A stretch of DNA of 64,000 bases from an uncultured Nitrospiraceae bacterium (lineage in GTDB: Bacteria; Nitrospirota; Thermodesulfovibrionia; Thermodesulfovibrionales; SM23-35). The stretch lies in assembly GCA_963727775.1 (NCBI GenBank), contig CAVSHB010000002.1:288001-352000 (forward strand), read 5' to 3'. A program made the translations under genes and the position numbers. This document shows, piece after piece, positions 4,601 to 20,701 of the stretch (positions are counted from its first letter, which is position 1; each line of letters starts with the position of its first letter). The notes below the pieces were generated by a model. The model searched no databases, was not told the origin of the DNA, and was given only the letters and a program-made list of their open reading frames with translations.

Positions 4601-4726
4601 GTCCTCTGCAAAACACGGTCTAGCGAAAATGGCCATGATCGCGGACATTAAGAGAAGGGACAGTTTTATTCTATTTATTGACATAATATTCCTTTCCAAA
4701 GAAACGGCTTCTTTCGGGTATCCCAA
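1685..4726 (-). CDS. Exported M1-family metalloaminopeptidase fused to ChaN-like domain and C-terminal PDZ (true start probably the MSINRIK Met)
   Basis: Signal-like N-terminus; HEITHQW..NWLE zinc motif; ChaN motifs FIGERH, IGMEMFQ, QILWDETMA, LAG.EH; PDZ signature SPALKAGMKKGD. Confidence 0.85.
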   Translation of the reverse strand: MGYPKEAVSLERNIMSINRIKLSLLLMSAIMAIFARPCFAEDIQKSMPTFNLFVSFDLKENSLKGSAQITFPESQDIVVFTGNLRILSAGLNGNPVEYKKRDGIIEVSGKGTLEIKYEGTFRGVQGKVKKLEDGSAVSGDIVSTDGISLTGNWYPSLKGLAYYRLSALVPSGFTAISEAEEITSRETPSGKEYSFSFPHPVNGIHFAAGNYKEIKRSVGGIDIYAYFFPEDLSLADTYLEHTKTYLEMYSALLVPYPYKRFSVVENILPTGYSMPTFTLLGQEVVRLPFIVRTSLGHEITHQWFGNYVFADFQKGNWLEAITTFLSDYRYEEQKGKGWEYRKKILADYQSYVTPEKDFPLRAFSERTGFASMAIGYGKGTMLFHMLRSLVGEETFYRSLRLLIESNHFRNATWENIKKSFEKEYGKDLGWFFSQWLDRKGVPSIAVKDQRDLVLNGVHSASFRLEQEGEPYKLSLSASIITGKGDTKKTLEFGTQRQYIEITTDETPRTLVIDEGYDIMRRLREDEFPPVISRLLGDEKRLIVYSESEKSIYGSLIETFRDNGFMLKETKDLKDEDIRTSSLLILGYESPVIGRLFAGSKKPGRGFTLTVRDNPLNNGKVIACANADSPEEVVSVVKKIFHYGKYTSVRFEKGENVEKDIAKANRGMIFAIGEPMVGVVPKKLPALEQIIDNVAEKPLIFIGERHANYEDHKVELSVIMELYKKGKKFAIGMEMFQKPFQEAIDNYISGKTDEKEFLKKSEYFKRWGLDYSQYREIIEFARDKGIPIVALNLKSEVVHKVASGGLDSLSVEEKKEIPQDMDMSDYAYRERLKNVFESHPAGTKFDNFYQSQILWDETMAHSAAAFLREKPAYQLVVLAGVEHIMYGSGIPARLHRLTGREYATLINGAFDEGIGNYVIFADSIKPPFSAKLGAILRGKDGRVIIEDFSPDSPALKAGMKKGDAVILVDGWKIQTVEDVRIALCHKKPYESVRVQVMRKRFLAGEKEIEFHVPL

Positions 4727-4776
4727 ATATTATATCAGTTCGGCCTGCTGGCTTGCCTTTCCAATCTCAAAGGTCT

Positions 4777-4940
4777 TAGCCTGCATAATTCATAAGATCG
4801 CTGACAGATATAGTATTTGCACGGTTTTAAATTCTTTCGAAGAAAGAATTTACCTCGGAGGCCCGATTTGTACCGGGCCGAGAATGAGCGCAAATACTGT
4901 ATTTGTCGGCCCATTCAAATTCTATGAATCACATGAGTCA
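4777..4940 (-). repeat. Structured TIR repeat family 1, copy A
   Basis: TAGCCTGCATAATTCATAA...CTATGAATCACATGAGTCA; core is the reverse complement of CGCTCATTCTCGG..CCTCCGAGG..AAACCG; near-identical to reverse complement of 7514-7678. Confidence 0.85.
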
Positions 4941-5100
4941 GGCCACTTTATGCATACAATGGGGTTATCAATAATGGCGGGCACGGTATTTTCGCTCATT
5001 CTCGGCCGTGCCGGCCTCCGAGGTTTTCGCTTATCAGCGAAAAAAACCGCTCAAATGCCGTGCCCGCCATTATTGACAATACTTCATGAATAATAAGTAT
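4939..5100 (+). repeat. Structured TIR repeat family 1, copy C (tandem to A)
   Basis: Outer stem TCAATAATGGCGGGCACGG / CCGTGCCCGCCATTATTGA encloses core 4993-5050. Confidence 0.8.
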
Positions 5101-5155
5101 CGGACATGCCTTATGCTATAATTTGGCCTAAGAATTATCGAGAGTTTTTCAGAAA

Positions 5156-6346
5156 ATGGCGCAGGAGAATAATCATCTATCAAAAAAAGATGTCGTGATC
5201 ATAGGCGCCGGAGCTGCAGGCCTTATGTGTGCGATAGAGGCCGGGAAACGGCACCGCTCGGTCCTTGTCCTTGAACACAAGAATAAGATAGGGAATAAAA
5301 TCAGGGTTTCAGGAGGCGGCCGCTGCAATTTCACCAATATAAATCTGCTGTCTGAAAATTACCTTTCTGCCAACCCACACTTCTGTAAATCCGCGCTTGC
5401 ACGTTTTACGCCCCATGATTTCATCGCTATGGTAGAAAGGCACGGGATTGCATATTACGAAAAGGAAAAAGGCCGGCTCTTTTGCCACGGGACCTCGGGG
5501 GATATCGTCAGGATGCTCCATGAGGAATGCCGCAGCGCGGGTGTTGAAATGCGCTTGAATTGCAGAGTCGGAAGCATAATGAGAACCGACCACTTCTCTA
5601 TCTCAACGAACTTCGGCAATATAGAAGCGGACTCTTTGGTTATTGCAACAGGCGGATTGTCTTATCCGCAACTCGGCGCAACGGACATGGGGTTCCGAAT
5701 AGCCCGGAGGTTCGGGATTAAGGCCACTCAACTGAAACCGGCATTGGTGCCTCTTGTTTTCGGTCACCAGGATTTGAAAAAGTACGCTGAATTGAGCGGA
5801 GTTTCATTTGATGCGATGGTTGAATGCAGAGGCAGGCAATTCCGGGAAGAAATCCTTTTTACTCACACGGGCCTAAGTGGGCCTGCTATCCTTCAGGTCT
5901 CATCCTATTGGGAACGCGGGGATACGATCATTATAGATCTGATGCCCGACACGGAAGCATATGAACTTTTTATGTCGAAACGCGGCAGCAGAATGGAGTT
6001 GAGCAACCTTCTCGCGGAACATCTTCCCAGGAGATTCAGCCACAGGTGGTGCGATATAAATACACCTTCAAGGCCATTATGCCGATTTACGGAAAAGGAG
6101 CTTAAGGAAATAGCGCATCTGATACACCACTGGACAATAAAGCCCGAAGGGACCGGGGGCTATAAAAATGCGGAGATTACAGCAGGCGGAATAGACACTG
6201 ATGAACTGTCATCCAGGACCATGGAAACAAAAAAAGTGCCCGGCCTCTATTTCGCCGGAGAGGTCATTGATGTCGCCGGACAGCTCGGAGGCTATAACCT
6301 TCAATGGGCCTGGTCCTCAGGATTTGTTGCAGGCCAGTATGCGTAA
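5156..6346 (+). CDS. HI0933/BaiN-family NAD(P)/FAD-dependent oxidoreductase
   Basis: IIGAGAAG, SGGGRCNFTN, ATGG.SYP, LFTH.GLSGP, GGYNLQWAWSSG. Confidence 0.95.
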   Translation: MAQENNHLSKKDVVIIGAGAAGLMCAIEAGKRHRSVLVLEHKNKIGNKIRVSGGGRCNFTNINLLSENYLSANPHFCKSALARFTPHDFIAMVERHGIAYYEKEKGRLFCHGTSGDIVRMLHEECRSAGVEMRLNCRVGSIMRTDHFSISTNFGNIEADSLVIATGGLSYPQLGATDMGFRIARRFGIKATQLKPALVPLVFGHQDLKKYAELSGVSFDAMVECRGRQFREEILFTHTGLSGPAILQVSSYWERGDTIIIDLMPDTEAYELFMSKRGSRMELSNLLAEHLPRRFSHRWCDINTPSRPLCRFTEKELKEIAHLIHHWTIKPEGTGGYKNAEITAGGIDTDELSSRTMETKKVPGLYFAGEVIDVAGQLGGYNLQWAWSSGFVAGQYA

Positions 6347-6347
6347 T

Positions 6348-6926
6348 ATGAAAACCATCATACTCGCGTCAGCTTCTCCGAGAAGAAAAGAGATACTCGA
6401 AAAAACGGGCCTGAAATTTAGAACCGATGAAAGCGATTACGAAGAGAAGATGGTATCCGGGCTGAAACCCCATGAGCTTGCCGTATTGCTTTCACGCAAA
6501 AAGGCAAGGGTCGTTGCCCGCAGATACAGGGACGCTATCATAATTGCTGCTGATACGGTCGTCGTATTAAGGGGCAGGCTTTTCGGAAAACCCCGCGACG
6601 CGGAAGAGGCAAGGAAGATGCTTAAGGCCCTGAGCGGAAAGTCTCATTACGTAATCACCGGTTTTACGATAATAGATACGGAAATCAAAAAAGAGCTGTC
6701 CCGGTCAATAGAAACAAAGGTCTTTTTTAAAAGGCTGAGCGCTGTTGAGATAGAGGCTTACATAAGGTCCGGCGAGCCCCTGGATAAGGCCGGGGCTTAT
6801 GGTATTCAGGGACTTGGCGCCGTGATTGTAAAAAAAATGGAAGGGGACTTCTTTAATGTGATGGGCCTTCCTTTGAACGCTGTGGTCGAGAGCCTGAAGA
6901 AGTTCGGAATAAATGTATTAGCTTAG
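6348..6926 (+). CDS. maf: Maf-family nucleoside triphosphate pyrophosphatase
   Basis: ILASASPRR, ADTVV, GKP, DKAGAYGIQG, NVMGLP; ATG at 6348 just after upstream stop. Confidence 0.95.
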   Translation: MKTIILASASPRRKEILEKTGLKFRTDESDYEEKMVSGLKPHELAVLLSRKKARVVARRYRDAIIIAADTVVVLRGRLFGKPRDAEEARKMLKALSGKSHYVITGFTIIDTEIKKELSRSIETKVFFKRLSAVEIEAYIRSGEPLDKAGAYGIQGLGAVIVKKMEGDFFNVMGLPLNAVVESLKKFGINVLA

Positions 6927-7068
6927 GCCCTCAAATAAAATTGACTGCACATATTTCTGCCTTATTTAGATTGCGCGAAATATTAGTATGGATTTTGATG
7001 CTGTAAAGCAATATAATTAATAAAATTGTTATATAAAATAATTGTGAAACGAATTTGGGAGGAGAGCC

Positions 7069-7428
7069 ATGATATCAACACTCGAAGAATTAAAAACGGA
7101 AAGAAAGATTATTAATGACATCGATTGGGAAATGACGCCTGAAATGGCTGTCCGGATGTATTTGGAATGGGGGAACATCTGGTCCCATGGGGAGGACCGA
7201 AGACATATAGTCCGTTCCAAAAGCGATTATTCGGTCTATTTTGTAGTATACTGCTGGGAAAAACCTTATTATATTTACCTCATGAGAAGAAATTCCGAAG
7301 ACGCGGTGGAGCTTGCAAAAATAGAATTGCCTGAAAGGTTTGAAAAAACAGTATGCAAGCTTAAAGGGGTATATGCGCTTGAAGGTGAACTCAAAGAATG
7401 GATGAGAAAAGAATTAAACGCCGCTTGA
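7069..7428 (+). CDS. DVU0772-family protein
   Basis: IDWEMTPE.AV.MYLEWGN..., YFVV..W, L..RNSE.A.ELA; RBS GGAGGAG upstream. Confidence 0.75.
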   Translation: MISTLEELKTERKIINDIDWEMTPEMAVRMYLEWGNIWSHGEDRRHIVRSKSDYSVYFVVYCWEKPYYIYLMRRNSEDAVELAKIELPERFEKTVCKLKGVYALEGELKEWMRKELNAA

Positions 7429-7513
7429 AAGATGACCGAACGCATTACTATTTGACTAAATAATAATGCGTTCAACTGAAAATATCTGCCGAACAATATT
7501 GTGATTTCATATT

Positions 7514-7678
7514 TAACCCACTTAATTCATGAAATTTGCGGCTGCCGACAAATACAATATTTGCGCTCATTCTCGGCCCGGTACAGATCGGGCCTCCGAG
7601 GTAAATTCTTTCTTCGAAAGAATTTAAAACCGCTTAAATACTGTATCTGTCGGCAATCTTATGAATAGTGTAAGTTTA
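7514..7678 (+). repeat. Structured TIR repeat family 1, copy B
   Basis: TAACCCACTTAATTCATGA...CTTATGAATAG; core 7564-7633 flanked by CAAATACAATATTTG / TAAATACTGTATCTG. Confidence 0.85.
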
Positions 7679-7732
7679 GATTGATTATCAGTTATGTCCG
7701 GGTATCGAACTTCGACGGACAAGGAGAGATGA

Positions 7733-10013
7733 ATGGAGATAAAGGAAGCACATTTTTCAATTATTTCTGAAGAGCTTGAGATAAAGACGGCACAGGTTAA
7801 GGCAACGGCCCTGCTTCTCGGAGAAGGGGCGACCGTGCCGTTTATAGCGAGATACAGAAAAGAGGCTACCGGAAGCCTTGACGAGGTTGCCGTCACAGCT
7901 ATCAGGGACAGGCTGGAGCAGTTAGCTGAATTGGACCAAAGGCGTGAAGCAGTCTTGAAGTCTCTCGATGAACGGGGGCTCATTACGGACGAGTTAAGGG
8001 GGAAGGTCGCAGGCGCCTCCTCTTTAACAGAACTCGAAGATATCTATCTGCCCTTCAGACCGAAACGCCGCACAAGGGCCACTGCGGCAAAAGAGAAGGG
8101 TCTCGAACCTTTGGCAGCAATGATTTTTGAACAGGGCGAAATCGACCCCGAGACTGAAGCCACTTCTTTTGTCGATCTGGAAAAAGGGGTCGAAACTGTT
8201 GAGGAAGCCCTTTCCGGCGCACGCGATATCATTGCTGAATGGGTAACCGAGGACCAGAAGGCCAGGGAAAAGATGCGTGAACTCTATTCCCGCAAAGGAG
8301 TGATGAAGTCAAAAGTCATCTCCGCGAAGGAAGAAGAAGGGATAAAGTACCGCGACTATTACGGATGGGAAGAGCCGGCTTCGAAGTCTCCTTCGCACAG
8401 GGTCCTTGCCATACGCCGGGGCGAAGAAGGAGGGCTTTCTCAGTTTGCGGATTGTCCCGCCTGAAGATGAGGCTATTACACTCCTTGAAGCTCTTTTCAT
8501 AAAAGGCGCATCTCCGGCATCCGAACAGGTAAAGACTGCTGTAATCGACAGTTTTAAAAGACTTCTCTCACTCTCGATTGAGACAGAGATACGCCTTGCG
8601 CTGAAAAAACGGGCAGATGAAGAGGCGATCAGGGTATTTGCAGAGAATCTGAGACAGCTTCTTCTTGCTCCACCGCTCGGAGGGAAAAACGTTCTGGCGA
8701 TCGATCCCGGCTTTAGGACCGGCTGCAAGGTTGTCTGCCTCGATAGACAGGGAAAGTTATTGGAGAATGATACAATTTATCCCCTTTTTTCGGATAAGGG
8801 CACATCGGAGGCAGCGGCGAAGATCAGGCAACTCTGTGAAAGGTTCGGGATAGAAGCTATCGCGATAGGAAACGGTACCGCCGGTAGGGAAACCGAGACC
8901 TTTGTTATGGGCATCGGTTTGCCGGAGAATATTGCGGTTGTAATGGTGAACGAAAGCGGCGCGTCAATCTATTCGGCTTCCGAGGTGGCGCGTGAAGAAT
9001 TCCCGGACCGGGATGTAACGGTGCGTGGCGCTGTTTCGATCGGGAGAAGGCTGATAGACCCTTTGGCGGAGCTGGTTAAGATCGATCCTAAATCGATCGG
9101 GGTCGGACAATACCAGCACGATGTCGACCAGCCAGCCCTAAAAAAGAGCCTCGATGACGTTGTTATCAGCTGCGTGAACGGCGTAGGGGTTGAGGTGAAT
9201 ACCGCGAGCAAAGAACTTCTTACTTACGTCTCCGGGTTGGGTCCGCAGCTTGCGAGAAACATCGTAGCATTCAGAAATGATAACGGACCGCTTAGGTCGA
9301 GGAAAGACCTCATGAAAGTCCCACGCCTGGGGCCGAAGGCCTTTGAACAGGCAGCGGGTTTCCTCCGTATCAGGGATGGGGAGAACCCTCTCGACAGAAG
9401 CGCAGTGCATCCCGAAAGTTATCACATCGTTGATACGATGGCGAAGGATATGGGATGTCCCATAGTCGAACTTATGGAAGACGAGTCTCTCAGAAAGACG
9501 ATTGATATTACCCGCTATGTGACCGATACGGTCGGAATTCCCACCTTAAGCGACATCATGGCCGAGCTTTCCCGGCCCGGCCGCGACCCGAGAGATAAAT
9601 ATGAATCTTTCCGGTTCACAGAAGGCATCGAGAAGCTGGAAGACGTGAAGCCCGGGATGAAGCTCCCTGGGATCGTTACGAATATAACCGCTTTCGGGGT
9701 CTTTGTGGACATCGGCGTTCATCAGGACGGCCTTATTCATATCAGTGAACTTTCCGACAGGTATGTGAAAAATCCTGCAGAGGTGGTGAAGGTCCATCAG
9801 AAGGTCTTTGTGACCGTCTTTGATGTGGACCTCCAGAGGAAGCGAATCTCCCTATCGATGAAAAGCAAGCCGGTTAAAACCGATGGACAGCCCGAGGCAA
9901 AGGAAAAAATAAAAGTAAACAGCGAGGCCATGAAGGAAAAGAAAGAAAAAAAAGGTAGTAGGCCGAAGCGGTTTGTGAATAACCCTTTTTACGAGGCACT
10001 CAGGAAGAAGTGA
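7733..10013 (+). pseudogene. tex: Tex (YhgF) RNA-binding transcriptional accessory protein split by a 1-nt frameshift near 8420-8432
   Basis: ORF1 has GATVPFIARYRKEATG..SHRVLAIRRGE; ORF2 continues KEGFL..DPGFRTGCK..IGVGQYQHDV and an S1 domain; mutation or assembly error. Confidence 0.85.
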
Positions 10014-10045
10014 GCTCAGCAGGCGAGCTGGAATTGTCTATTACC

Positions 10046-10312
10046 TTACCTGAATCGATCTATGAGTTTATGCGTACCGACAAAATAAAGCTTATAAATG
10101 TTGCCTTCCTGCTGGAAAATACACCTATAGAAGTCGTCTACATAAAACTCCCAGAAATCAGAACCTTCAAGCTTGTGTATTTTTAAGGAAGGAAGTTTTG
10201 GATTATCGTTGAGAAGGGATATTTGTTTTTTAAATTTTTTCTTTATACCTTTGGGTAATTCATCGTACTGCGCAAAGAAATCCGGCTCTATGGATATGAG
10301 ATAGTTGCTCAA
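10046..10312 (-). CDS. RelE/ParE-superfamily toxin
   Basis: 88 aa, NP..PSL..HKL.G...WE..V...YR..F....VG.H; overlaps antitoxin stop. Confidence 0.75.
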   Translation of the reverse strand: MSNYLISIEPDFFAQYDELPKGIKKKFKKQISLLNDNPKLPSLKIHKLEGSDFWEFYVDDFYRCIFQQEGNIYKLYFVGTHKLIDRFR

Positions 10313-10584
10313 TCTCTCTTTCCCAGTTCCTTTAGAAGCTCATCAACTTTATATGTCTTAGACCTGCCTTCTCTGAATGTCTTTTCAGCCTTCCTTATCT
10401 TTTCCTGTACCTCCTCAGACCAGAACCACGCCTGTGAGCGGGGAATGTGGATGGAGGGCTCAAGAACGAGCTTTCCTTCCCGTACCTCCAGAATAAGCTG
10501 ATCACCTTCCTTTATGTGAAGTATTTCACACACATCTTTCGGTATGGCTATCTGCCGTTTCGGCGAAACTGTCAGTGTCTTCAT
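10309..10584 (-). CDS. AbrB/MazE/SpoVT-family antitoxin
   Basis: RQIAIPK.V...L.IKEGD.L, C-terminal QAWFWSEE.Q. Confidence 0.85.
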   Translation of the reverse strand: MKTLTVSPKRQIAIPKDVCEILHIKEGDQLILEVREGKLVLEPSIHIPRSQAWFWSEEVQEKIRKAEKTFREGRSKTYKVDELLKELGKRD

Positions 10585-10604
10585 AACTCAATCTCCTTAC
10601 AAAA

Positions 10605-10645
10605 TTTTACTGCTTAGTAAAATAGTAAAATAATTTTACTATTTT
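10605..10645. promoter_or_regulatory. Overlapping palindromic operators upstream of the toxin-antitoxin operon
   Basis: TTTTACT-gctt-AGTAAAA and AAAATAGTAAAA-taa-TTTTACTATTTT, next to a minus-strand TTGACA (tgtcaa 10645-10650). Confidence 0.6.
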
Positions 10646-10760
10646 GTCAACGCTTATTGAAGTCCGTCAGATTCGGGATCAACTTCTGTAACTAATGACG
10701 TACAAAGAACGATAGATATGCATATTTGAAGTAACCGAAAAATTATTTTACGCCCACTAG

Positions 10761-12463
10761 GAGTCTGTCGGACTTGAATTGCTGTTTTTGACAGCGGTTG
10801 GAATCCGAGAGAGTCGATTGTAGTTATTTTTCATGATTTGATCGTCTGTCATCGGTTCTTTCCTGCCGGTGTTTTGTTGGATACATTATGCCATCGCCAT
10901 TTTCAGGCGCCTACCTGGCTGTTCCTCAATGCATGCAGCCTTTTGATGTTCCATGCAATGCAGATCATATCCCACTCGCCATTGACTGCAGTAAAACCAC
11001 GCAACAGGAATCGGTCAAATCCCATAGCTGCCTTGATTACCCCAAACGCCGGCTCCACAGTACTCTTGCGTATCGCATAAATTGCCTTACCGGCAACTGT
11101 CTTCAACCGATGTTTCATTCTTGTCACTGCATCAGCATCAACCGGCAATGGAGGCGGTTCGACGAATCGCTCCCATAAAGGCTGATTATGACTCTGCCGA
11201 TCTACTGCTATATATGGCTCTATTCCTTTGCTCTCACATTCTTGCACATTTGCTTCGCTGTAATACCCGCTGTCGGCTATTATAGTTTTTACTTTGCCAA
11301 GTTGTTCGGGCAGATATGTAAGCGCTTCAAGCGCTGGTTTCATCTGCTGTTTGTCATTGGATTGTTGTGTTACATGCGTTGCGACAATAAGCATTGTTTC
11401 TGTATCCACGGCTGCTTGAGCATTATAAGCCTGCTTGAATCCTCCACCCGATGCCGGCATTATGCGAGATTCTTCATCGGTCAGATTGACCTGATCTTTG
11501 TCAGTTGGCCCGGCTGCAGGCGGCTTGGGTCCTTTGCCTCGGGGTTTCTTGCCGCTCTGCTTTTGTTTGGCTACACGCTCTGCCTGTTTCTTTTCACTGT
11601 CGGCTTGTTCCATTGCATGCCGCTCTGCCGCACGGCGCTCTATCTCAGCTTTTGCTTCAGCTATCATTTTCAGCCGCTTCTCTCGCCGCTCCAGCTCTTC
11701 CGGGATGTTCATGCCGTCAGGAATGTCAGCTTTGTCAGCAGCCTCAGCTTTCTTCATCAGTTCCGCCACTTCCACTTTCAACTTATTCTCTATTTTGCAT
11801 GCATGCCCGTAGCTCAACGCCTTGTGCTTTGAGGCATTGGCTTTCATTTTGGTCCCATCCAAGCTGACCGTGCCTAACTTCAATACCCCGGTTTCTGCTG
11901 CTATCATTAGTATCTGCACAAACAGTTCTTTCAGCTTAGGCAAAAACCGACGTCGAAAGGTTGCTATTGTGTCATGGTCAGGGTGACTGTTGGCTGCCAC
12001 ATACCGGAATGCTACAGAGTCGTACGTGCTACGCTCTAATTGCCTGCTCGAAAAGACTCCCGTCGCATATCCGTAAAATAATAATGCCACCAGCATCTCA
12101 GGGCTGTATGCCTCACTGCCTCGTCCTGCATAATCATTTTTCAACCGGTCAAGATTAAGCTGATCCACTATCTCTACGACAAATCTCGCCAAGTGACCCT
12201 CGGGCAACCATTCCTGCACCGACGGCGGAAATAAATATATCGTCTCTCTGTCACATTGTTTGAACATTATGCTGATCTCCTGTTGTTCATTCTTATGCCG
12301 CTTGTCTATTATGCCATAAGGAACGCCCATGCAGGTCTGTCGGACTTAGATAATTACAGGCCGAAAAGATTTCTGCTGCCCAGTTTGCAATAAAGGTTCT
12401 TAAGAGACTGCCGTGTCCTTCAAGAAGTAAACTTTTCAGAAATGTTGAAAGTCCGACAGACTC
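10761..12463 (-). mobile_element. IS1182-family insertion sequence
   Basis: TIR GAGTCTGTCGGACT (10761-10774) / AGTCCGACAGACTC (12450-12463); CTAG duplicated on both sides. Confidence 0.9.
10903..12267 (-). CDS. IS1182-family DDE transposase
   Basis: PDHDTIATFRRR, DGTKMKANASK, NLTDEESRIM, ADSGY, RKSTVEPAFG; start set at MFKQ. Confidence 0.92.
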   Translation of the reverse strand: MFKQCDRETIYLFPPSVQEWLPEGHLARFVVEIVDQLNLDRLKNDYAGRGSEAYSPEMLVALLFYGYATGVFSSRQLERSTYDSVAFRYVAANSHPDHDTIATFRRRFLPKLKELFVQILMIAAETGVLKLGTVSLDGTKMKANASKHKALSYGHACKIENKLKVEVAELMKKAEAADKADIPDGMNIPEELERREKRLKMIAEAKAEIERRAAERHAMEQADSEKKQAERVAKQKQSGKKPRGKGPKPPAAGPTDKDQVNLTDEESRIMPASGGGFKQAYNAQAAVDTETMLIVATHVTQQSNDKQQMKPALEALTYLPEQLGKVKTIIADSGYYSEANVQECESKGIEPYIAVDRQSHNQPLWERFVEPPPLPVDADAVTRMKHRLKTVAGKAIYAIRKSTVEPAFGVIKAAMGFDRFLLRGFTAVNGEWDMICIAWNIKRLHALRNSQVGA

Positions 12464-12828
12464 CTAGAAAACAAAAACGTTTCTAACACCTTCTACTGGT
12501 TTATTATTGTCAAGAACTTTTTACGGAGTAACTCCCCTCTGATAGAGACAAGCCACTACTAAGGTTTCCTGGCTTCAATGGTTTCTGCTTCGTTCTTTGC
12601 CCCCAGATCCCTTGTCTCATTACGTAATCCATTCTGCATGTTTGAGAGCCAATTCTGAAAAAGCGGCTTCGTAGAAAGCTATAGGATCGATTATCTCAGC
12701 ATGACCCATATTACGGTATCCCCTGGATTCGGCGTTTCTCTTTTTTATGCCTCCTCTTGGCTCCTTTCACTTAACCTTATATCAACCTTCTCACTTCCAT
12801 CTCCATTAGGAGGAAGTCACTTTAGTCT

Positions 12829-12991
12829 TTGGTGTAGCACCTTGCCTGACACTGGTAATTCGAGGGTCTCAACAGAGCCCTGACCTTGCTTAATCGAGAC
12901 TAAGGTGCAAGCGGGGAGTTACAAGCTCCGCATGAAGGTCGGCTCAGCCGCCTTAGGTATCAGGTCGGTAATCTCCCCGCTTACACGCCAA
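12829..12991 (-). ncRNA. Putative bridge/seek RNA with two internal-loop hairpins
   Basis: Enclosing stem TTGGTGTA/TACACGCCAA; hairpin 12909-12982 (target loop) and 12837-12908 (donor loop), each stem-internal loop-hairpin. Confidence 0.7.
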
Positions 12992-13000
12992 TACTATAAG

Positions 13001-14263
13001 TTATGCAGCCTCCTGGTATTGAAGTGAGACTATAGAGAAATCTTTTTTGTATACACTTTGGTCACGCACAACAGCAAATATGATTCCAAGAAGTTTTCTT
13101 GCTACGGCGATCAGCGCCTTGGTCTTAGGCATGCCCCGCTCAAGGTACTTTTGATATTGATCGTGCATTATTCCACCTCTGCGGACTGTGTTGAGCGAGG
13201 CAAAGTACAAAAGTTTACGCAGCAGGTGACGGCCTCGCTTAGATATGCGTCGCTTCCCCTTGTATTGGCCAGAACTGATCTCATAAAGGTCCAGCCCTGC
13301 GAGCTTTAGGATCTCGGAGAGGGTTTGAAACTTCCGAAAATCACCCACTTCACCGATAAGACCGGCAGTGGTAACCTCTTTAATCCCCTTTATCGAGAGG
13401 ATCGAGCCACTGTAGGGAATCTGCTTCAGATAATACCCCATTTCCTTTTCCAGATCCCCGGTAAAGGACTCAGCAGCGTCCATGGCGATAAGAAGTTCTC
13501 TTATCTCACGTATAATGCTCGTCATGCCTTCGGTTACACCTATAGAAGCTGTTGCAGCCTCATAGAGGGCCTTGGCGCGATCTTCCTTCAGCTTTCCGCG
13601 GCTGACCTTATTGATCGTTGCACTCAAATTATCAAGACCGTACGCGACAATATCCTTGGGTGCTGGGCACTGCGCAAGGAGATATCGGGCAGTCAACGTC
13701 TTTACATCCTTCATTACCTGCAAAAACTCAGGAAAGATAATCGCAAGCAAGCTCTGGAGCTGGTTCACCAGGGATACATAACGCTCGTTGCTCCTTTCCC
13801 TGGCCTGAGTGAGCCTCCTGAGTTTGGCCGCTGGACCTTCCGGGATCACTACAGTCAGGGCGTGGCCAAGTGCCATAATATCAGCGATAACCTTTGGGTC
13901 TTTCTGGTCGGTCTTGTTCGGCGAATTACCCTGAAGCTCCTTAAGCCTCTTAGTGTGCATAGGGCTTACTTGTACCATGTGTACGCCTCTCGCACGCATG
14001 AAATGAACAAGAGGTTCGGCATACGGCCCGGTGGACTCGTATCCAAAAACAATATCTTCGATGTTATGGAGCTTTTTGGCATAAGATACACGATCCCAGA
14101 ACTCTTGGAAACCCCTGCCGTTGTTCCAGAAGGCAAAGGGCTTCACATCGCTTCCGTCCGGACAGCGCCAGTATCCAAAATGTCTATCCTTTCCCATATC
14201 AGCTGTCACAATCATCGTTCTACCATTGACTACTTTAAACTTTTTTGTTTTACTCTTCTTCAT
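13001..14263 (-). CDS. IS110-family recombinase/transposase (DEDD RuvC + Tnp20 domain)
   Basis: ADMGKDRH, GYESTG, KTDQKD, IKGI, LAGL....SSG, ISKRG...LR, A.ARKL. Confidence 0.95.
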   Translation of the reverse strand: MKKSKTKKFKVVNGRTMIVTADMGKDRHFGYWRCPDGSDVKPFAFWNNGRGFQEFWDRVSYAKKLHNIEDIVFGYESTGPYAEPLVHFMRARGVHMVQVSPMHTKRLKELQGNSPNKTDQKDPKVIADIMALGHALTVVIPEGPAAKLRRLTQARERSNERYVSLVNQLQSLLAIIFPEFLQVMKDVKTLTARYLLAQCPAPKDIVAYGLDNLSATINKVSRGKLKEDRAKALYEAATASIGVTEGMTSIIREIRELLIAMDAAESFTGDLEKEMGYYLKQIPYSGSILSIKGIKEVTTAGLIGEVGDFRKFQTLSEILKLAGLDLYEISSGQYKGKRRISKRGRHLLRKLLYFASLNTVRRGGIMHDQYQKYLERGMPKTKALIAVARKLLGIIFAVVRDQSVYKKDFSIVSLQYQEAA

Positions 14264-14504
14264 GGCTATACTCCTTTCTTTGGTTTGGATTTAACCAACT
14301 CGCACATTGGTCTGAATCAAGAAAGAGTATAGCCTTCTTTAACAAGGCCTAACTCTACAACAATATAGCAAGCTCCGCAGCCGAAATGTATTGAAATTAT
14401 TGCTGTATACTGGTACAAATATTGAGATCTTAAAAGAACAGTTTTTATAAAAAGGTTTCAGGTGTTGTTTGTCTTACGGAATTGGGGTAAAGATGAGTAG
14501 CATA

Positions 14505-14533
14505 ATATTATTAACCCATTAGGTTAATAATAT
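14505..14533. promoter_or_regulatory. Perfect 12-bp inverted repeat, probable HigA operator
   Basis: ATATTATTAACC-catta-GGTTAATAATAT just upstream of the higB-higA operon. Confidence 0.65.
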
Positions 14534-14552
14534 ATTGAAATTAATTTAATAC

Positions 14553-14891
14553 ACGGTTATACTATTTAAAACGACAAAGCTCGAAAGAGAGTGCAATAAT
14601 AAAAATCTTATGTTGAAAAGATTTGGTGCACTGAGATCAAAATTTTTGAAAAGAAGACTAAATGAACTGCAAGCGGCTGCTTCACTTGATGTTTTACGAT
14701 TTCTACCTCAGGCGCGGTCTCACGAACTGAAGGGAAATAGAAAAGGACAGCTCTCTGTCGATCTTGACCATCCGTACCGGTTGATTTTCGAGCCTGCAAA
14801 TAATCCGGTCGCTAAAAAGCCGGACGGTGGACTTGACTAGAATAAAGTAACAAGTGTGAGGATTATTGGCGTGGAGGACACACATGAGTAA
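14553..14891 (+). pseudogene. higB: HigB-like (RelE-superfamily) toxin, inactivated
   Basis: Frame reads (ACG)VILFKTTKLEREC..HELKGNRKGQLSVDL.HPYRLIFEP..DGGLD*NKVTSVRIIGVEDTHE*; ACG at expected start and TAG (14838) at the expected Trp. Confidence 0.75.
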
Positions 14892-15987
14892 AGAAATAAA
14901 AAGTGAATTTGTACCTGATTATGCGGTGCCTCCGGGAGAGACGCTTCTTGAGACGTTGGAGACAATAGGCATGTCCCAGGCCGAGCTTGCAGAACGCACC
15001 GGTAGGCCCAAGAAGACAATTAATGAAATCGTCAAGGGGAAGGCTGCGATTACTCCTGAAACCGCCTTGCAATTGGAAAGGGTACTCGGAGTGCCCGCAA
15101 GCTTTTGGAATAATCTGGAACGTAATTATCAGGAAACCCTTGCGCGCATTAACGAGCAAAAGAGGCTGCAAAAACAAATTAACTGGCTTGAGAAATTTCC
15201 CATTGCTTTATTTGTCAGGAATGGATGGGTTAAGGGTTATAAAGACAAAATTCAGCAACTTAAGGCAGTCCTGAATTTTTTTGGTGTAGCTTCTCCTGGG
15301 CAATGGACACTGAGATGGCTTGACGCTCAGGTTTCATATCGAAAATCAGCAGTATTCACGAGTGATCCTTATGCCGTGGCCCCATGGCTGCGGATAGGAG
15401 AGCTCATTGCTCAAAAGACTGAATGCAGGCCCTATGCTGCGGCCAAGTTCAGAAACGCGCTCTCTGAAATCAGGAAACTTACAACACAGCCTCCCGAGGT
15501 TTTTCAGCCTGAAATCATTCGCCTTTGCGCCGGATGCGGGGTGGCTGTTGTTTTTGTTCCTGAACTTCCGAAAATAAGGGCATGTGGCGCAACATGGTGG
15601 CTGAATCCCAGCAAGGCGGTGATCCAATTGAGCCTGCGCTATAAAAGCGACGACCAGTTGTGGTTCAGCTTTTTCCATGAAGCGGGACATATACTTATCC
15701 ACGGCAAGAAAGATGTTTTTATTGAGGGTAATAATCAAGGCTCTGATAAGGAAGACGAAGCTGATAGATTTGCTTCTGATATTTTGATTCCACCCAGGAA
15801 ATACAGTCAATTTGTGCACTCAGGAAGATGCAGTAAAGAAGCCATCAAGGATTTTGCCTCTGAACTCAGCATTGCTCCAGGCATTGTTGTGGGACGACTT
15901 CAGCATTTCGGTAAAATACCATATAGCCATTGCAATGATCTGAAACGAAGATTTGAGTGGCAGAATGCTGCGGCAAAAATTAGATAA
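14884..15987 (+). CDS. higA: HigA-family HTH antitoxin fused to ImmA/IrrE metallopeptidase domain
   Basis: PPGETL.E.L..MSQAELAER..INEI.KGK..IT.ETA..LE..LG..A.FW.NL, plus FFHEAGH..EDEADRFA. Confidence 0.9.
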   Translation: MSKEIKSEFVPDYAVPPGETLLETLETIGMSQAELAERTGRPKKTINEIVKGKAAITPETALQLERVLGVPASFWNNLERNYQETLARINEQKRLQKQINWLEKFPIALFVRNGWVKGYKDKIQQLKAVLNFFGVASPGQWTLRWLDAQVSYRKSAVFTSDPYAVAPWLRIGELIAQKTECRPYAAAKFRNALSEIRKLTTQPPEVFQPEIIRLCAGCGVAVVFVPELPKIRACGATWWLNPSKAVIQLSLRYKSDDQLWFSFFHEAGHILIHGKKDVFIEGNNQGSDKEDEADRFASDILIPPRKYSQFVHSGRCSKEAIKDFASELSIAPGIVVGRLQHFGKIPYSHCNDLKRRFEWQNAAAKIR

Positions 15988-16203
15988 ATTAACTACTTTA
16001 GGATGGGACATTCCAGCAGGTGCTTTCAGTACCTAAAAGATTGGGTGGAGAAGAAGATACGGCGGTATCTTATGAGGGCTCGAAAACGCGGAGGCTTTGG
16101 CTGGGACAGGTGGAGTAGAGACTGGTTTTACGGGCATCTTGGGCTTTATGCCGATTATAAGGTGAGGTATTACCGCGGACTCGAAAGCGCTGCCAGCGGA
16201 TAG
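15988..16203 (+). pseudogene. C-terminal (domain X/thumb) fragment of a group II intron reverse transcriptase/maturase
   Basis: NYFRMGHSSRCF..WVEKKIRRYLMRAR.R.GFGW.RWS; RT domain absent. Confidence 0.85.
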
Positions 16204-16438
16204 GCATCATAACCCTTGAGGAGAAGCCAATAGGAAAGCGTAGTGCGGGAAATCCGCACGCTGCGTTTGACGTGGCAGGGAATGGAAAAGTGCCATGGCG
16301 AACCTAAACGGGCACGAAACTGGAAACGGTGGATACAGCCAAGGGGAGACCTACTGTAACTCGCCATTCTTTGACCCTACTGATGAGGGGGAGCTGGAGA
16401 TAGAGCTTACATGCCCCTACGCCAGCTCTCTACTCTAC
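16204..16438 (+). mobile_element. Group II intron 3' remnant: DV, DVI and a second DVI from a host intron
   Basis: DV AAAGCGTAGTGCGGGAAATCCGCACGCTGCGTTT 16235-16268; DVI ends CCCTAC 16380; then TGATGAGGGGGAGCTGG..CCAGCTCTCTACTCTAC to 16438. Confidence 0.85.
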
Positions 16439-16595
16439 AGAAGTGAATCAGGGTTGATCTCGCAATCTTCATTTTTCCGTGCATCAGAGAATCCTATTTA
16501 TTCCATATCCCTGCAATTGTTACCAGATAAACTTAAGAAAGGAAAAGCAAAACTGTTGCGGACTACGAGAAAAAATATCAGTAATTCATTTATGT

Positions 16596-18107
16596 TTATC
16601 TGAAGAGACTTAGCTGGTCTTTCCTCAACTGGGCAAATCCTTCTTCCGGAAAATGGAAAGTGTTCTTAAAAACCCTGTTCATTACAGAGACTAATTGGCG
16701 GAATTTATAGGCGTCATGGTGGGAGTCCCCCGTTCGTTCGGACGAACGCCAGCTTTGTTCGTCGGATATGCGCAATTCTATGCCCAGGGTGTACTGTTGG
16801 GTTTTTTTGCTGACACGGTCTCTTTTCGAATACAGCGGGGTCCCGGGAATCATAATTTCGTTCGTTTCGGCGGTGCGGTGTATCGGCAGAGAAAAGTTAA
16901 TTTTGCACTGAAACTTCTTATGACCTAAGGAAGTATGCGGGTTCTTCGCCGCATTAACACTAAGGGCTTCATAGAATTTCTTCGCATTGGCAAGCAACTC
17001 TTCTTCCACCGGCATTTCATTATTGCCCTCGCTCTGAGCAAGGCTGATCATTAGTCTGCGAACGGCTTCAATCATGCTTTTCGGACCATCGAAGAGTGTC
17101 TGGGTTATGGAATGCGAAGCCGTGTTTTCCTGCAGGATGACACCTCTCTTCTGGAGGGCATGGAAAAGCTTCAGCGTGTCATCGATGCTCTTCAGAATAA
17201 AAGTGATCGCAAGGATGTCCCTTATATCATATGCTTCTGCTTCTACATTCTTTCCTAACTTGGTAAACATGCTTTGCGGGCTCTTTAACCTGGCTTTAAT
17301 CTCGGCAATGTCTACCTCAACACCGTCTCCGCTGTTGAAAATCAGACATGCCTTCTCCTTATCAAATGTCATCGACTCTTTCAGTTTATGGAAAAAAGTG
17401 GAAATCTTGACAAATGCCCTTAGCACGGATTCACGTTCGGGGAGAATTCCGGGATTTTCCCAGTCGTAATAGTACAAGTCATCAAGGCTCTGCCCCTGCA
17501 TTTCCAAAAAAAAGCCCAGCTGGGCGTAATCGTTAATGTCCTGGCTGTCCTCTTCAATTGCCTTAATCAAATGGCCCATTTTGAGAATGGAACAGGCCAC
17601 CTTCTGCCACTCAATGGGAACTTCCATCTTCCTCCCCTTATAACCAAAAAAGATATGCGGATACTTTCTGGAGGAGGCGAGAAGAAAAAGATGCCGGGGG
17701 TCTTCAGAGACTATCTGCCGGAACACTGTATTCTTCAGAAGAGATTCTATTTCTCCGATGGACTGCAAGCAACTCCGGTAAAGACCGGAGTTGGTGGAAT
17801 TCAGAGCATCCAGCCTTTCCAGTTGATCAATCGTGAAGGGGAGCATCCAGTCAAAAAAATACCTGTATACCTGTTCAATATACTTCAGTGCCCGTTCCTT
17901 CTCGCTACCCAGTAATTCATTATTACCGAAGATATCAAAACCCCGGTTGGCCATCATTTTAGTTGCCTGTCCGAGGGCGGTCTCATAATCCCCGGCAGGT
18001 AATAAGAGAAATGGGGTCATCTCGATCCTATCCAGTATAGAACCGAATATTTCGTGATGAAGTTCCTGGCCTGACGATCCGTGTTTCATAAGGAAAATAT
18101 CGTGCAA
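16596..18107 (-). CDS. Uncharacterised protein with RelA/SpoT-like nucleotidyltransferase fold (TIGR04552/TIGR04562-like)
   Basis: ARLKSPQSMFTKL, DIRDILAITFI, NPHTS, ELRI, H..YK motifs in RSH-synthetase order. Confidence 0.6.
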   Translation of the reverse strand: MHDIFLMKHGSSGQELHHEIFGSILDRIEMTPFLLLPAGDYETALGQATKMMANRGFDIFGNNELLGSEKERALKYIEQVYRYFFDWMLPFTIDQLERLDALNSTNSGLYRSCLQSIGEIESLLKNTVFRQIVSEDPRHLFLLASSRKYPHIFFGYKGRKMEVPIEWQKVACSILKMGHLIKAIEEDSQDINDYAQLGFFLEMQGQSLDDLYYYDWENPGILPERESVLRAFVKISTFFHKLKESMTFDKEKACLIFNSGDGVEVDIAEIKARLKSPQSMFTKLGKNVEAEAYDIRDILAITFILKSIDDTLKLFHALQKRGVILQENTASHSITQTLFDGPKSMIEAVRRLMISLAQSEGNNEMPVEEELLANAKKFYEALSVNAAKNPHTSLGHKKFQCKINFSLPIHRTAETNEIMIPGTPLYSKRDRVSKKTQQYTLGIELRISDEQSWRSSERTGDSHHDAYKFRQLVSVMNRVFKNTFHFPEEGFAQLRKDQLSLFR

Positions 18108-18257
18108 TTCACCTGTCCCGGATTGTAATCCAACGGCTCGGCTTTATATTTCTTTTACCTGATTATTATAGCTTATCAAACCTGAATTAAAACTGAAGCG
18201 GTCATACAAGTGGGGATTTTTTCGTATAGCACGAAAGATTTCAAATGCCGTCAGGCC

Positions 18258-20276
18258 TCAATCTCCGAGTATGGCCTTTATGTTTGCGAAGCACTTCTTG
18301 GCGTAGACCTTCTCCTGTTCCGGATCGAGTTTCTCGAATCTGTCGAGTTTTTTGATCGCTTCCTCGGGGATTTCCAGCAGAAACCTGGAGGGAACGGAGG
18401 TCTTGTTTTTGCCGTATTTGGATCTGTAATCGGTGTATGTAATGTAAAGCTCATTCATTGCCCTTGTTATCCCCACATAGAAAAGCCTTCTTTCCTCTTC
18501 GATATATTCTTCTTTATCCGCTGATTTCCTGTGGGGCAGAATGTCCTCCTCCACACCCGCAATGAACACAACGGAGAATTCCAGGCCCTTTGACGAATGG
18601 AAAGATATGAGCGTGACGCCGCGCCCGGCCTCATCTTCTTTTTCCTTCAATAGGTCCGTGAGCGCCATTGTTTCGAGAAACCCGTGAAGGGAAGGAGATT
18701 CCTCAGTGGCTTCGTAGTGGGCAAGGGAACCCACGAACTCCTCCATATTTTCGATCCTCCTGAATGCTGCTTCAGGGGTCTTATAGAGGCCGCTGATGTA
18801 ATCCCTGTAATTGATCTCTTCGACCAGCGCTTTAACGGTCTTGCCCATCTCCCGACCTTTGTTGAACATGTCCCGGTACCGGCCGATCAGCCCGGCAAGG
18901 GCCTCTGCAGAGGCGCCCGCCTTAGGACTGACACCGGATACTCCGGAGGCCCTGCTGAAAGTATCAAGAAGACTTATGGAGTTGGACCGTGCGAAATCTG
19001 AAAGCACAGCCAGCGCTGAAGTCCCGATGCCTCTCTTCGGTGCGCTTGAGGTCCTCAGAAGGCTCAGGTTGTCCGAGGGGTTTGCGATGATTTTGAGATA
19101 GGCAGCGAGATCCTTGATCTCCTTGTGTTCGAAATAACTCATCCCTCCTACCACCGAATAGGGAATCCTCTGCCTCCTTAATGCGGCCTCAAAAGGCCTC
19201 GAAAAGATATTGGCCCTGTAGATGACGGCGAAATCCTCATAAGGCATATTCCTCTCGAACTTTATCATCGATATCCTGTCTGCTACCCATTCCGCCTCGC
19301 CTTCCGTGTCCGCAGCCTTGAAGATGTTGACCTTGGGGCCGTTGCCCCTTTCGGTCCAGAGGGCCTTTTCCATCCTCCGCCTGTTGTTCCTTATGACTCC
19401 GTTTGCCGCATTGAGGATATTTCCGAACGAGCGATAGTTCTGTTCGAGCTTTACAGTTACGGTCCCGGGAAAGTCCTTCTCAAAATCGAGGATATTGCCG
19501 ATGTCGGCTCCCCTCCAGCCATAGATGGACTGGTCATCGTCCCCGACCACGCAGATGTTTCTTCTGGCATCCGCGAGAAGCCTGATGAATGTATACTGCA
19601 CCCGGTTCGTATCTTGGTACTCATCGACCATGATATACCTGAACTTCTCCCTGTATTTTTCAAGTACTGCCGGATGTTCCCTGAAGAGCTTCAGAGTAAG
19701 CAAAAGAAGGTCATCGAAGTCGAGGGCATTCAGCGACTTCAGCGCCTCCAGATACCTTGGATAAAGCAAAGTCGAGACCTCCTCGATAGGATCGTCTGAA
19801 GGAACGGTGTCCGTTGTAGTGAAATCGTTCTTCGTCCTGCTGATCCTTTCCAATATGGACTCTGCCTTGAAACTTTTGTCGTAAAATCTGATGTCCGACA
19901 GTATGTTTCTCAGGAGCGAAACCTGCTCCGAAGTATCGTAAATCGTAAAGTCTTTTCTATATCCGATGTGTTCGATCTCGGACCTCAAAATTCTGAGACA
20001 GAGTGAGTGAAATGTCGAAATAACGGGCGCGCCCTTCTCTCCCCTCAGCATGGCTTTTACCCTCTCCTTCATCTCCCTTGCCGCTTTATTCGTAAAGGTG
20101 ACCGCCACGACAGATCCGGCCCTGACACCGGTGTGGATAAGATATGCGGTTCTCGTGGTGATGACCCTCGTTTTTCCCGAACCGGCGCCGGCCAGTATAA
20201 GGAGCGGCCCCTCCATATGCATGACCGCTTCTTTCTGCCTTGGATTGAGGCGAGCTATTTCTTTCTCTATATCCAC
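18258..20276 (-). CDS. uvrD: UvrD/Rep/PcrA SF1 DNA helicase
   Basis: AGAGSGKT, TFTNKAA, VDEYQD, GDDDQSIY, LEQNYRS, H.SKGLEF, EERRLFYVGITRA. Confidence 0.95.
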   Translation of the reverse strand: MDIEKEIARLNPRQKEAVMHMEGPLLILAGAGSGKTRVITTRTAYLIHTGVRAGSVVAVTFTNKAAREMKERVKAMLRGEKGAPVISTFHSLCLRILRSEIEHIGYRKDFTIYDTSEQVSLLRNILSDIRFYDKSFKAESILERISRTKNDFTTTDTVPSDDPIEEVSTLLYPRYLEALKSLNALDFDDLLLLTLKLFREHPAVLEKYREKFRYIMVDEYQDTNRVQYTFIRLLADARRNICVVGDDDQSIYGWRGADIGNILDFEKDFPGTVTVKLEQNYRSFGNILNAANGVIRNNRRRMEKALWTERGNGPKVNIFKAADTEGEAEWVADRISMIKFERNMPYEDFAVIYRANIFSRPFEAALRRQRIPYSVVGGMSYFEHKEIKDLAAYLKIIANPSDNLSLLRTSSAPKRGIGTSALAVLSDFARSNSISLLDTFSRASGVSGVSPKAGASAEALAGLIGRYRDMFNKGREMGKTVKALVEEINYRDYISGLYKTPEAAFRRIENMEEFVGSLAHYEATEESPSLHGFLETMALTDLLKEKEDEAGRGVTLISFHSSKGLEFSVVFIAGVEEDILPHRKSADKEEYIEEERRLFYVGITRAMNELYITYTDYRSKYGKNKTSVPSRFLLEIPEEAIKKLDRFEKLDPEQEKVYAKKCFANIKAILGD

Positions 20277-20410
20277 CGATATTTCCTTTCAGACACGTTC
20301 CACGAAGATAATACAACAGTCTTTGCACTCTGGAAATTTTATATATCCGGCAGGACGCCGGAGAAAAGTTTAACACTTTTATATTACTGTTTTAGTGATG
20401 ATAAGGCAAT

Positions 20411-20578
20411 TAATCCAGATTATTCATAAAGCATGGGCAATCAGAACAGATGCAGTACCATCGCTCATTCTCGGTCCGCTTTTGCGGACCTCCGAGGTAT
20501 CCCGATCAAATCGGGATAAAGCCGCGCTGACACTGCATCTGCTCTGATTGAGTAAATATTTATTAATAATATAGGCTA
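20411..20578 (+). repeat. Structured TIR repeat family 1, copy D
   Basis: TAATCCAGATTATTCATAA...TTATTAATAATATAGGCTA; outer stem AATCAGAACAGATGCAGT/ACTGCATCTGCTCTGATT; core 20462-20526. Confidence 0.85.
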
Positions 20579-20652
20579 ACCAGCGCTTTCATAAGATTGC
20601 CGACAAATACTGTATTTGTCGACACCCGTAAATTTTATGAACTACCCGACTA
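20577..20652 (+). repeat. Core-less (empty) derivative of repeat family 1, copy E
   Basis: TTCATAAGATTGCCGA-CAAATACTGTATTTG-TCGAC..TTATGAA: arms of copies A/B with a single 15-bp palindrome and no core. Confidence 0.8.
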
Positions 20653-20701
20653 AAAAGTAAGTACAATTTAAGCGGAAATATCTGTTATAATCGCTCTATC
20701 A

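Follow-up and report, generated by a model that had tools for sequence, protein, structure and literature searches.

An uncatalogued Nitrospirota repeat with an ordinary IS1380-type shell and an unusual three-way-junction core

The stretch analysed here (the window) comprises 64,000 nucleotides of contig CAVSHB010000002.1 from an uncultured Nitrospiraceae bacterium, and it holds a family of small intergenic repeats in which short blocks of invariant sequence alternate with hairpins that change from copy to copy while remaining paired. Four copies carry this core and a fifth is devoid of it. Each core-bearing copy in the window combines a shell, which is a miniature inverted-repeat transposable element (MITE) of the IS1380 family, with an inner three-way junction, here called the module, that is made of an outer stem (P1), an inner stem (P2) and two variable arms (hp1 and hp2). 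The copies are as follows, with the score of the model match in brackets.

4780..4942, minus strand: copy 1, an IS1380-type MITE with three-way-junction module (124.9 bits); matched by the model at 4797-4912, with the invariant core at 4853-4888; TTAG (4776-4779) is probably its target duplication
4943..5099, plus strand: copy 2, with outer stem, hp1 and hp2 unlike those of copy 1 (81 bits); model match 4971-5074, invariant core 4995-5023
7517..7674, plus strand: copy 3 (128.1 bits); terminal inverted repeats 7517-7533 and 7659-7674, flanked by TTAA at 7513-7516 and TTTA at 7675-7678; P1 is 7544-7565 with 7633-7654, followed inwards by CTCATT 7566-7571, P2 and hp1 7572-7600, hp2 7602-7626 and AAACCG 7627-7632
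20414..20575, plus strand: copy 4, a third combination of outer stem, hp1 and hp2 (76.6 bits); model match 20440-20549, core 20464-20497; flanks TTAA 20410-20413 and CTAA 20576-20579
20580..20649, minus strand: core-less 70-bp MITE derivative adjoining copy 4; CTAA flanks 20576-20579 and 20650-20653

Invariant junction and exchanged hairpins

The four core-bearing copies were named in a preliminary description of this DNA, and all four are present: the exact core CTCATTCTCGG-N5-30-CCTCCGAGG is matched four times in the window, at 4853-4888 (-), 4995-5023 (+), 7566-7601 (+) and 20464-20497 (+), and in 0 of 100 dinucleotide shuffles of it, in line with a chance expectation of 0. The hairpins are also those listed there, with hp1 reading CCGTGCCGG in the copy at 4995, CCCGGTACA[A/G]ATCGGG in the copies at 4853 and 7566, and TCCGCTTTTGCGGA in the copy at 20464, and hp2 reading TTTTCGCTTATCAGCGAAAA, TAAATTCTTTCTTCGAAAGAATTTA (two copies) or TATCCCGATCAAATCGGGATA. 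The outer stems, 22 bp long, differ in sequence by copy type and keep their pairing, as had been proposed. The closing block had been given as AARCCGC; AA[A/G]CCG holds in all four copies, and the next base is C in three of them and T in the minus-strand copy matched at 4797-4912. The fifth copy (20580-20649), which is covered by the end coordinate 20652 of that description, consists of the two inverted ends and the distal arms of the outer stem, fused directly, so that the entire junction module is gone. Copies 1 and 2 abut at 4942/4943 in opposite orientation, probably because one of them landed at the margin of its neighbour.

The module is a three-way junction of ~115 nt, which the covariance model used here (R1) represents by 116 positions and 43 pairs; R1 was built from six equal-length copies, a MAFFT alignment of the variable hairpins being too ragged to annotate. 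P1, usually 20-29 bp long (62 of 84 copies), leads into the 5' junction strand CTCATT and then into P2, formed by CTC/GAG, a 3-nt bulge (TCC) and G-C. There follow the variable hairpin hp1, a single G, a variable hairpin or branched arm (hp2) and the closing strand AANCCG. P2 had earlier been drawn as CTCGG/CCGAG, a drawing contradicted by paired changes of G/C to A..T or T..A: because the last G and the first C of the blocks that flank hp1 change jointly, GG pairs with CC beside hp1 and TCC is bulged.

In the source genome (G000; 3.43 Mb, 4 contigs, 45% G+C), a relaxed regular expression found 75 matches, comprising 68 with a pairing outer stem, 3 deletion variants and 4 chance-like matches. 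A search with R1, in which 150 of 673 first-look candidates were scored, gave 116 matches that by our own count represent 74 distinct places and 42 opposite-strand echoes; the exact 20-base pattern stands at 50 of these 74 places. Among the copies there are at least eight hp1 types, at least five hp2 types and at least six outer-stem types in various combinations, one hp1 being seen with three different hp2 and outer stems, and the hairpins therefore act as exchangeable units between the invariant blocks. Contigs of four DNA runs contained six further hp1 sequences between these blocks. The hairpin loops are unlike GNRA or UNCG. No conserved open reading frame (ORF) was found on either strand of the module, and a small candidate of the form GGAGG...ATG on the strand opposite CTCATT was rejected, as its frame crosses the variable stem, stops after two codons in locus L172 and is unconserved.

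Covariation in the larger alignment, whose lack would by the terms of the preliminary description have refuted it, is strong. Among 67 sequences aligned to the model, 88.8% of the paired cells are complementary, compared with 58.4% in shuffles, and both sides change in 38 of the 43 pairs. The covariation score is 0.654 against 0.160 for shuffled alignments, none of 500 shuffles reaching the observed value, and controls in which the pairing was slid gave ~0.09. The five pairs of P2, on the other hand, never covary and are nearly fixed (CG in 67, UA in 67, CG in 66, GC in 67 and GC in 64 of the 67 sequences), and conservation also reaches 90% or more at 13 positions that the search pattern did not require (CG, CT, G, AA, CCG, C). 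Outer stems at orthologous sites likewise differ by paired substitutions, between G000 and the relative G008 in the proA|nadD gap and between the relatives G147 and G124 at two sites. The module is thus under selection for pairing, with a junction and a P2 that are sequence-specific.

Several variants of the arms were encountered. At C3:134142 and C3:365617 of the source genome and at locus L037 the hp2 loop is flipped, reading CGAAG or CAAAG instead of CTTCG, which recalls flip/flop hairpins. A second small repeat, a double hairpin with C6/G6 runs (CCCCCC..GGGGGG..), was noted at L018, L020, L026, L044, L087 (hp2 region), L151 (2267-2433) and L134 (proA-nadD gap); in other genomes many copies have it nested in hp2, and in G001 it occupies the proA-nadD gap by itself. 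In the same gap of G008 (L132, 1393-1484) there is a reduced module that keeps the outer stem, CTCATTCTCG and AAAACCGCTC, and in which one hairpin substitutes for the 3' half of P2 and hp2.

The IS1380 shell and copies without it

The MITE-like shell of the preliminary description is confirmed and its source can be named as the IS1380 family, by virtue of common ends, duplications and a transposase. The ends had been given as TARCCnnnnTWATTCATAA; this sequence is indeed present, although it is better parsed as a 4-bp YTAR target duplication followed by the inverted repeat CCCAC[AT]TAATTCATAA. A search for the end motif in the source genome yielded 110 sites, among which four inverted pairs, 1,656-1,657 bp apart and in C1, each enclose a DDE transposase of 448 aa (PF13701, E 1.9e-153; NF033539 'IS1380 family transposase', 410.1 bits with a cut-off of 180). 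A transposase gene with the repeat's terminal inverted repeats, which the preliminary description had proposed to look for, is found in IS1380-family elements resident in the same genome. The ends of these full insertion sequences (ISs) read CCCACATAATTCATAA and those of the MITE are the same, so that the CCCAC[AT]TAATTCATAA ends and the 4-bp YTAR duplications are common to the IS1380 elements and the small repeats. All four full IS copies have YTAR at both sides. Both ends could be recognised in 23 small copies, of which 10 are flanked by identical 4-mers (TTAA, TTAG, CTAA) and another 5 by 4-mers that agree at three of four bases. Target-site duplications in the IS1380 family measure 4-5 bp (ISfinder).

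The likeness between the IS1380 elements and the small repeat is limited to ~20-22 bp per end, and in its 116-nt middle the small repeat bears no relation to the IS. Because ends and duplications match while the middle is unrelated beyond ~22 bp, the shell is a MITE of the IS1380 family that carries the junction module as a passenger. In the main subfamily, shells devoid of the core stand at only two places in the genome, as against dozens that bear it. Many copies in the source genome are near-identical and dispersed, and the IS1380 transposase would move such shelled copies in trans. A literature search on IS1380 and MITEs turned up nothing on such a passenger module.

The 116-nt middle also occurs without these ends. 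Of the 68 parsed copies of the source genome, 19 have no recognisable inverted end, and about 12 copies occupy operon gaps of 6-30 nt, such as proA|nadD, pyrK|pyrD and the gap between a secretion gene and a pilin-like gene. In the relatives G035, G147 and G124 all inspected copies are shell-less. The module is therefore separable from the shell and can stand alone in tiny operon gaps. Landing in pre-existing hairpin loops was considered and rejected: no 'empty' hairpins with the same arms exist in the source genome, and the element-free orthologous gaps at two sites are short and hairpin-free. Contigs of the four DNA runs over the repeats showed no empty-site joint, and their summed depth was high.

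The source genome is very rich in insertion sequences: PF13701 matches it 30 times, in elements of three or more size classes, and Y1_Tnp 22 times. Two genes for IS200/IS605-type Y1 transposases of 161 aa (C1:672113-672478 and C3:133614-133979) end ~140 nt before a MITE copy, and at both loci a GC-rich hairpin, CCCCGCCGTCTCTGCGGCGGGG, stands where the left end of the MITE would be. Because the hairpin takes this place, an IS200/IS605-type IS seems to target the TTCAT end of the MITE.

Distribution and known repeat families

The exact core is found in 23 of 41 related genomes, the source genome included, at 1 to 50 exact copies per carrier; within the family of the source organism, 18 of the 24 other genera have it; a reversed-pattern control gave 0 everywhere. 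In an even sample of the phylum, with 24 candidates scored per genome, 11 of 151 genomes had the element at E<=1e-6, and these belong mostly to the same order. A scan of one genome per species returned at least 120 loci, many of which are chance matches in GC-rich coding DNA. Among the matches listed there are full elements in metagenome-assembled genomes (MAGs) titled Nitrospirae/Thermodesulfovibrionales, and elements in MAGs titled Planctomycetota, Deltaproteobacteria/Desulfobulbaceae, Parcubacteria, Saccharibacteria and Competibacteraceae. With one genome searched for each, model matches at E<=1e-4 number 78 in Planctomycetota, 32 in Competibacteraceae, 9 in Deltaproteobacteria, 4 in Parcubacteria and 2 in Saccharibacteria. 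No exact match was found in viral contigs and no blastn match in plasmids.

In two MAGs from outside the Nitrospirota the surroundings of the module differ. In the Competibacteraceae MAG it lies between other conserved flanks (L209-L218), ..ATACGGGTTCCAGAAA..CCCGCTGATTGGCC.., which resemble the ends of a different transposon family. In the Planctomycetota MAG there are no common flanks, and each copy has a private, GC-rich outer stem: the distal stem arms show a between-copy identity of 0.59, compared with 0.52 for random 18-mers, and they still pair at 19.1 of 22 positions. The corresponding identities there are 0.82 for hp1 and 0.71 for hp2. The junction bases are the same in elements of 37-75% G+C from five phyla, with every helix rewritten.

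At given sites the element comes and goes. Of the two orthologous sites examined, one has it at 4 of 30 loci and the other at 2 of 18, most relatives having a short element-free gap instead. The proA-nadD gaps of G023, G002 and G019 (L141, L148, L150) hold an unrelated repeat with CAAGATACAGGAT- or CATCATGCATC-like units, which makes this gap a hot spot where small repeats of several kinds are found.

The preliminary description did not recognise the repeat as a named family, and the searches bear this out. Nothing in Rfam 15 matches it, either at the gathering score in the whole window or at E<=1 in positions 4600-7800 on both strands, and literature searches on miniature inverted repeats of Nitrospirota, on three-way junctions with MITEs and on the text of the 11-mer gave nothing relevant, the last of them yielding only unrelated primers. 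REP/BIME, ERIC and Correia elements are short non-coding hairpin repeats in intergenic gaps that are transcribed, and their orientation often has effects on the mRNA; the Correia and ERIC elements are MITE-like, and their resemblance to the module is one of design only. All of these are confined to one family or genus and conserved as whole sequences, whereas the module keeps only its junction. Hammerhead and twister ribozymes also have junctions with invariant nucleotides, free helices, many copies and a sporadic cross-phylum spread, but neither Rfam model matches the module, the junction sequences differ and the closing stem of the module is much longer.

Other parallels come from folded single strands that are recognised by proteins, such as REP sequences by RAYT and the attC bottom strand by IntI. 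Like attC, the module has one folded working strand (the non-mRNA strand, if the reading favoured below is right), carries a variable terminal structure between conserved boxes, and follows co-oriented genes. The conserved R''/R' boxes of attC lie at the base of the stem, however, and attC sites form cassette arrays, whereas the base of the module is its most variable part, its conserved bases are at the inner junction, and its copies are dispersed in housekeeping operons (proA|nadD, pyrK|pyrD) in no cassette array.

A last comparison is with the NTS/SRM repeats of Ssn single-strand nucleases, for which the recognised molecule is single-stranded DNA (ssDNA) (Chenal et al. 2025, PMC11893778). 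NTS is likewise a multi-copy hairpin repeat with an oriented, non-palindromic 5' box beside the stem, it too is spread across phyla, and it begins CGTCATTCCCGCG where the module has CGCTCATTCTCGG; the two are alike both in design and in their 5' box, CG(C)TCATTC. Genomes with NTS/SRM repeats carry a small GIY-YIG gene of the Ssn type, and the repeat often flanks it. However, the SRM string given there, HGTCWY...RNCYNB, needs GTCWY, and the module blocks CGCTCATTCTCGG, CCTCCGAGG and AANCCGC hold no GTC; moreover, NTS is a 30-nt hairpin and the module a three-way junction of ~115 nt (PMC11893778).

Strand preference and possible functions

Of the 68 copies in the source genome, 66 are intergenic. 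The strand that bears CTCATT is sense to co-directional neighbours in 30 copies of this genome and opposite in 3; in G035, G147 and G124 together the numbers are 15 and 2, giving a sense orientation in 45 of 50 informative cases. Copies in GC-rich MAGs were left out of these counts, since crude ORF calling fails there. The Parcubacteria MAG has two sense copies and one antisense copy in co-directional gaps. As the gene strand switches often along the contigs, the bias is most likely tied to transcription and not to replication. A look for RNA data sets that contain positions 3000-9000 of the window found none. Promoters resembling sigma-70 sites in or beside the copies number 7 against 5.9 expected, and neither promoters nor terminators are in excess; a role as intrinsic terminator was rejected, with a U-run after the stem in few copies (4 of 84, a count confounded by A/U pairs at the stem base).

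It is nevertheless the other strand that folds better. In the outer stem, read on the CTCATT strand, there are 1163 Watson-Crick cells, 96 A.C, 30 G.U and 43 other cells, and A.C exceeds G.U in 45 of the 67 sequences, with the reverse in 11; in hp2 the numbers are 10 A.C and 7 G.U. The strand opposite CTCATT has the lower predicted minimum free energy in 54 of 68 copies of the source genome and in 57 of 68 others, and again in 9 of 9 Planctomycetota, 8 of 10 Competibacteraceae, 17 of 19 further Nitrospirota and 4 of 4 Patescibacteria copies. A conserved tandem mismatch next to the junction (TCG/CTC in all lineages; 52 and 54 of 67 cells unpaired) consists of U.C/C.U when the CTCATT strand is read and of tandem G.A when the opposite strand is. 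Deamination biases, whether of the non-template or of the lagging-template strand, would yield the opposite asymmetry, and because mutation biases predict the reverse, selection is the likelier cause: it could favour the fold of the non-mRNA strand, or oppose an over-strong fold of the mRNA. Since the non-mRNA strand folds better, we favour ssDNA, a nuclease substrate or protein binding, all options raised in the preliminary description or close to it, over a plain mRNA element.

The explanation that we prefer, tentatively and with somewhat less than even confidence, is that the module is a folded single-strand recognition site, probably on the non-mRNA strand as ssDNA, of a putative sequence- and structure-specific protein. 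By analogy with the systems compared above, the invariant bases would form the surface recognised by the protein and the fold would present them. The fold would serve the spread or retention of the element rather than any one neighbouring gene. In favour of this reading are the selection on pairing, the sequence-specific core, the independence from the shell, the multi-copy spread over several phyla, the better fold of the non-mRNA strand and the absence of a promoter excess. Habits of DNA palindromes, namely loops that are not RNA-like, flipped hp2 loops and centre-deleted copies, would be in keeping with ssDNA.

Several points weigh against this reading. Some concern the data: the alignment was fitted to the structure and leans towards it, the sequences from other genomes were gathered by an exact 18-base pattern so that those 18 positions are invariant by construction, and genes were called crudely as long ORFs. 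GC skew tracks the local gene strand and has no replichore pattern, leaving the direction of replication unreadable. Others concern the strand, for the module is cotranscribed with operons on the CTCATT strand, as expected of a cis-acting RNA (30 of 33 and 15 of 17 copies); in hp1 the asymmetry is reversed, with 3 A.C and 11 G.U on that strand; ~10-20% of copies have Watson-Crick pairs where the others have the tandem mismatch; and the strand asymmetry may itself reflect selection that weakens the mRNA fold. Finally, searches for Y1/RAYT (PF01797), GIY-YIG (PF01541), IS1380 (PF13701) and CsrA (PF02599) proteins found no partner. An Ssn/GIY-YIG partner was rejected as PF01541 hits a single 610-aa ORF in the source genome, a search based on PF01541 alone that a very divergent homologue might escape. 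A RAYT/Y1 partner was rejected as PF01797 was not found in the carriers G024 (18 exact copies), G026 and G035 and is present in several relatives that lack the motif. The IS1380 transposase, too, was discarded as partner of the module: among draft relatives, having PF13701 shows no relation to the number of copies, and the domain is absent in G019, G024 and G037, which carry 14-18 exact copies.

A possible but doubtful alternative is a cis-acting module of operon mRNAs, read on the CTCATT strand, that affects processing, stability or insulation of translation in the manner of REP/BIME or ERIC and that was spread by the MITE and tolerated or used by the host. The co-orientation with genes (30:3 in the source genome and 15:2 in the three relatives, with two sense copies to one antisense in the Parcubacteria MAG) speaks for it, as do the placing of copies after a stop codon and ahead of the following ribosome-binding site, the paired changes at orthologous sites, the excess of G.U over A.C in hp1, and the exposed UCC bulge and frequent AUCC loops of hp1, which we read as anti-Shine-Dalgarno-like. 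Yet in every lineage tested it is the CTCATT strand that folds less well, and the conserved tandem mismatch would be U.C/C.U in such an RNA. The distribution is also patchy (23 of 41 relatives, 11 of 151 genomes of the phylum sample), most relatives lack the element at orthologous sites (present in 4 of 30 and 2 of 18), and the same gaps are filled by unrelated repeats in other genera.

We consider it unlikely, though worth stating, that the module is the working part of an undescribed, cross-phylum class of mobile single-stranded nucleic-acid element. In such an element the junction would itself be catalytic, or would be the handle of an enzyme that copies the module, with a fresh self-complementary stem, into operon gaps; MITE shells of different transposon families would then be merely a second route of travel.

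A small self-cleaving ribozyme on either strand, similar in design to the hammerhead or twister, is improbable. An invariant junction and a non-covarying P2 amid free helices, in many copies across phyla and with no known family matching, are what one would expect of such a ribozyme, but the closing stem, at 21-30 bp, greatly exceeds that of known small ribozymes, the loops do not look like those of RNA, the better-folding strand has no promoter, and cutting of the sense strand would cleave operon mRNAs at ~45 of 50 sites. One may also suppose that the module has no function of its own, its invariance stemming from descent and gene conversion and its pairing being a by-product of a palindromic MITE origin or of repair. 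The recombination of hairpins as units (one hp1 with three hp2 and outer stems), the loop flips, the centre deletions and the many near-identical copies fit this view, to which we nonetheless give little probability: junction bases stay constant over five phyla and 37-75% G+C while helices are rewritten, the Planctomycetota arms are near-random in sequence (0.59 vs 0.52) and yet pair at 19.1 of 22 positions, and core-less shells stand at 2 places against dozens that bear the core in the same subfamily. That the better-folding strand gives rise to an antisense small RNA or to a sponge for a CsrA-type protein, as suggested by the invariant GGA of its bulge, by GGA in many hp1 loops and by a ACAGGAUGU-like loop on the reverse complement of hp1 in several lineages (GGA and ACAGGAUGU being compared with the CsrA consensus), is very improbable, as there is no promoter signal, shell-less copies leave no room for a promoter, and the CsrA part is largely refuted by the lack of CsrA in the source genome and most carriers searched (PF02599: 0 in G000, not found in 23 of 24 other genomes of the family, present in 8 of the 41 relatives and, among the distant carriers, in 2 of 5).

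The repeat, then, is real and uncatalogued, and its shell is ordinary and its core unusual. In bacterial MITEs and REP-like repeats it is usually the entire sequence that is conserved, and this within one genus. Here, ~28 junction bases are fixed from Nitrospirota to Planctomycetota, Gammaproteobacteria and the tiny genomes of Patescibacteria with the helices all rewritten, and a fixed junction with rewritten helices is the signature of a fold that is recognised or catalytic. If a partner protein exists, as in the recognition-site reading that we prefer, it would represent a new sequence- and structure-specific system of single-strand recognition, comparable to those to which Ssn, RAYT and IntI owe their usefulness; if it is the RNA that is active, the module would be a new class of motif missing from Rfam. 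In either case many operon gaps of uncultured Nitrospirota are filled by this element, which bears on the expression of their operons and on the annotation of their MAGs.

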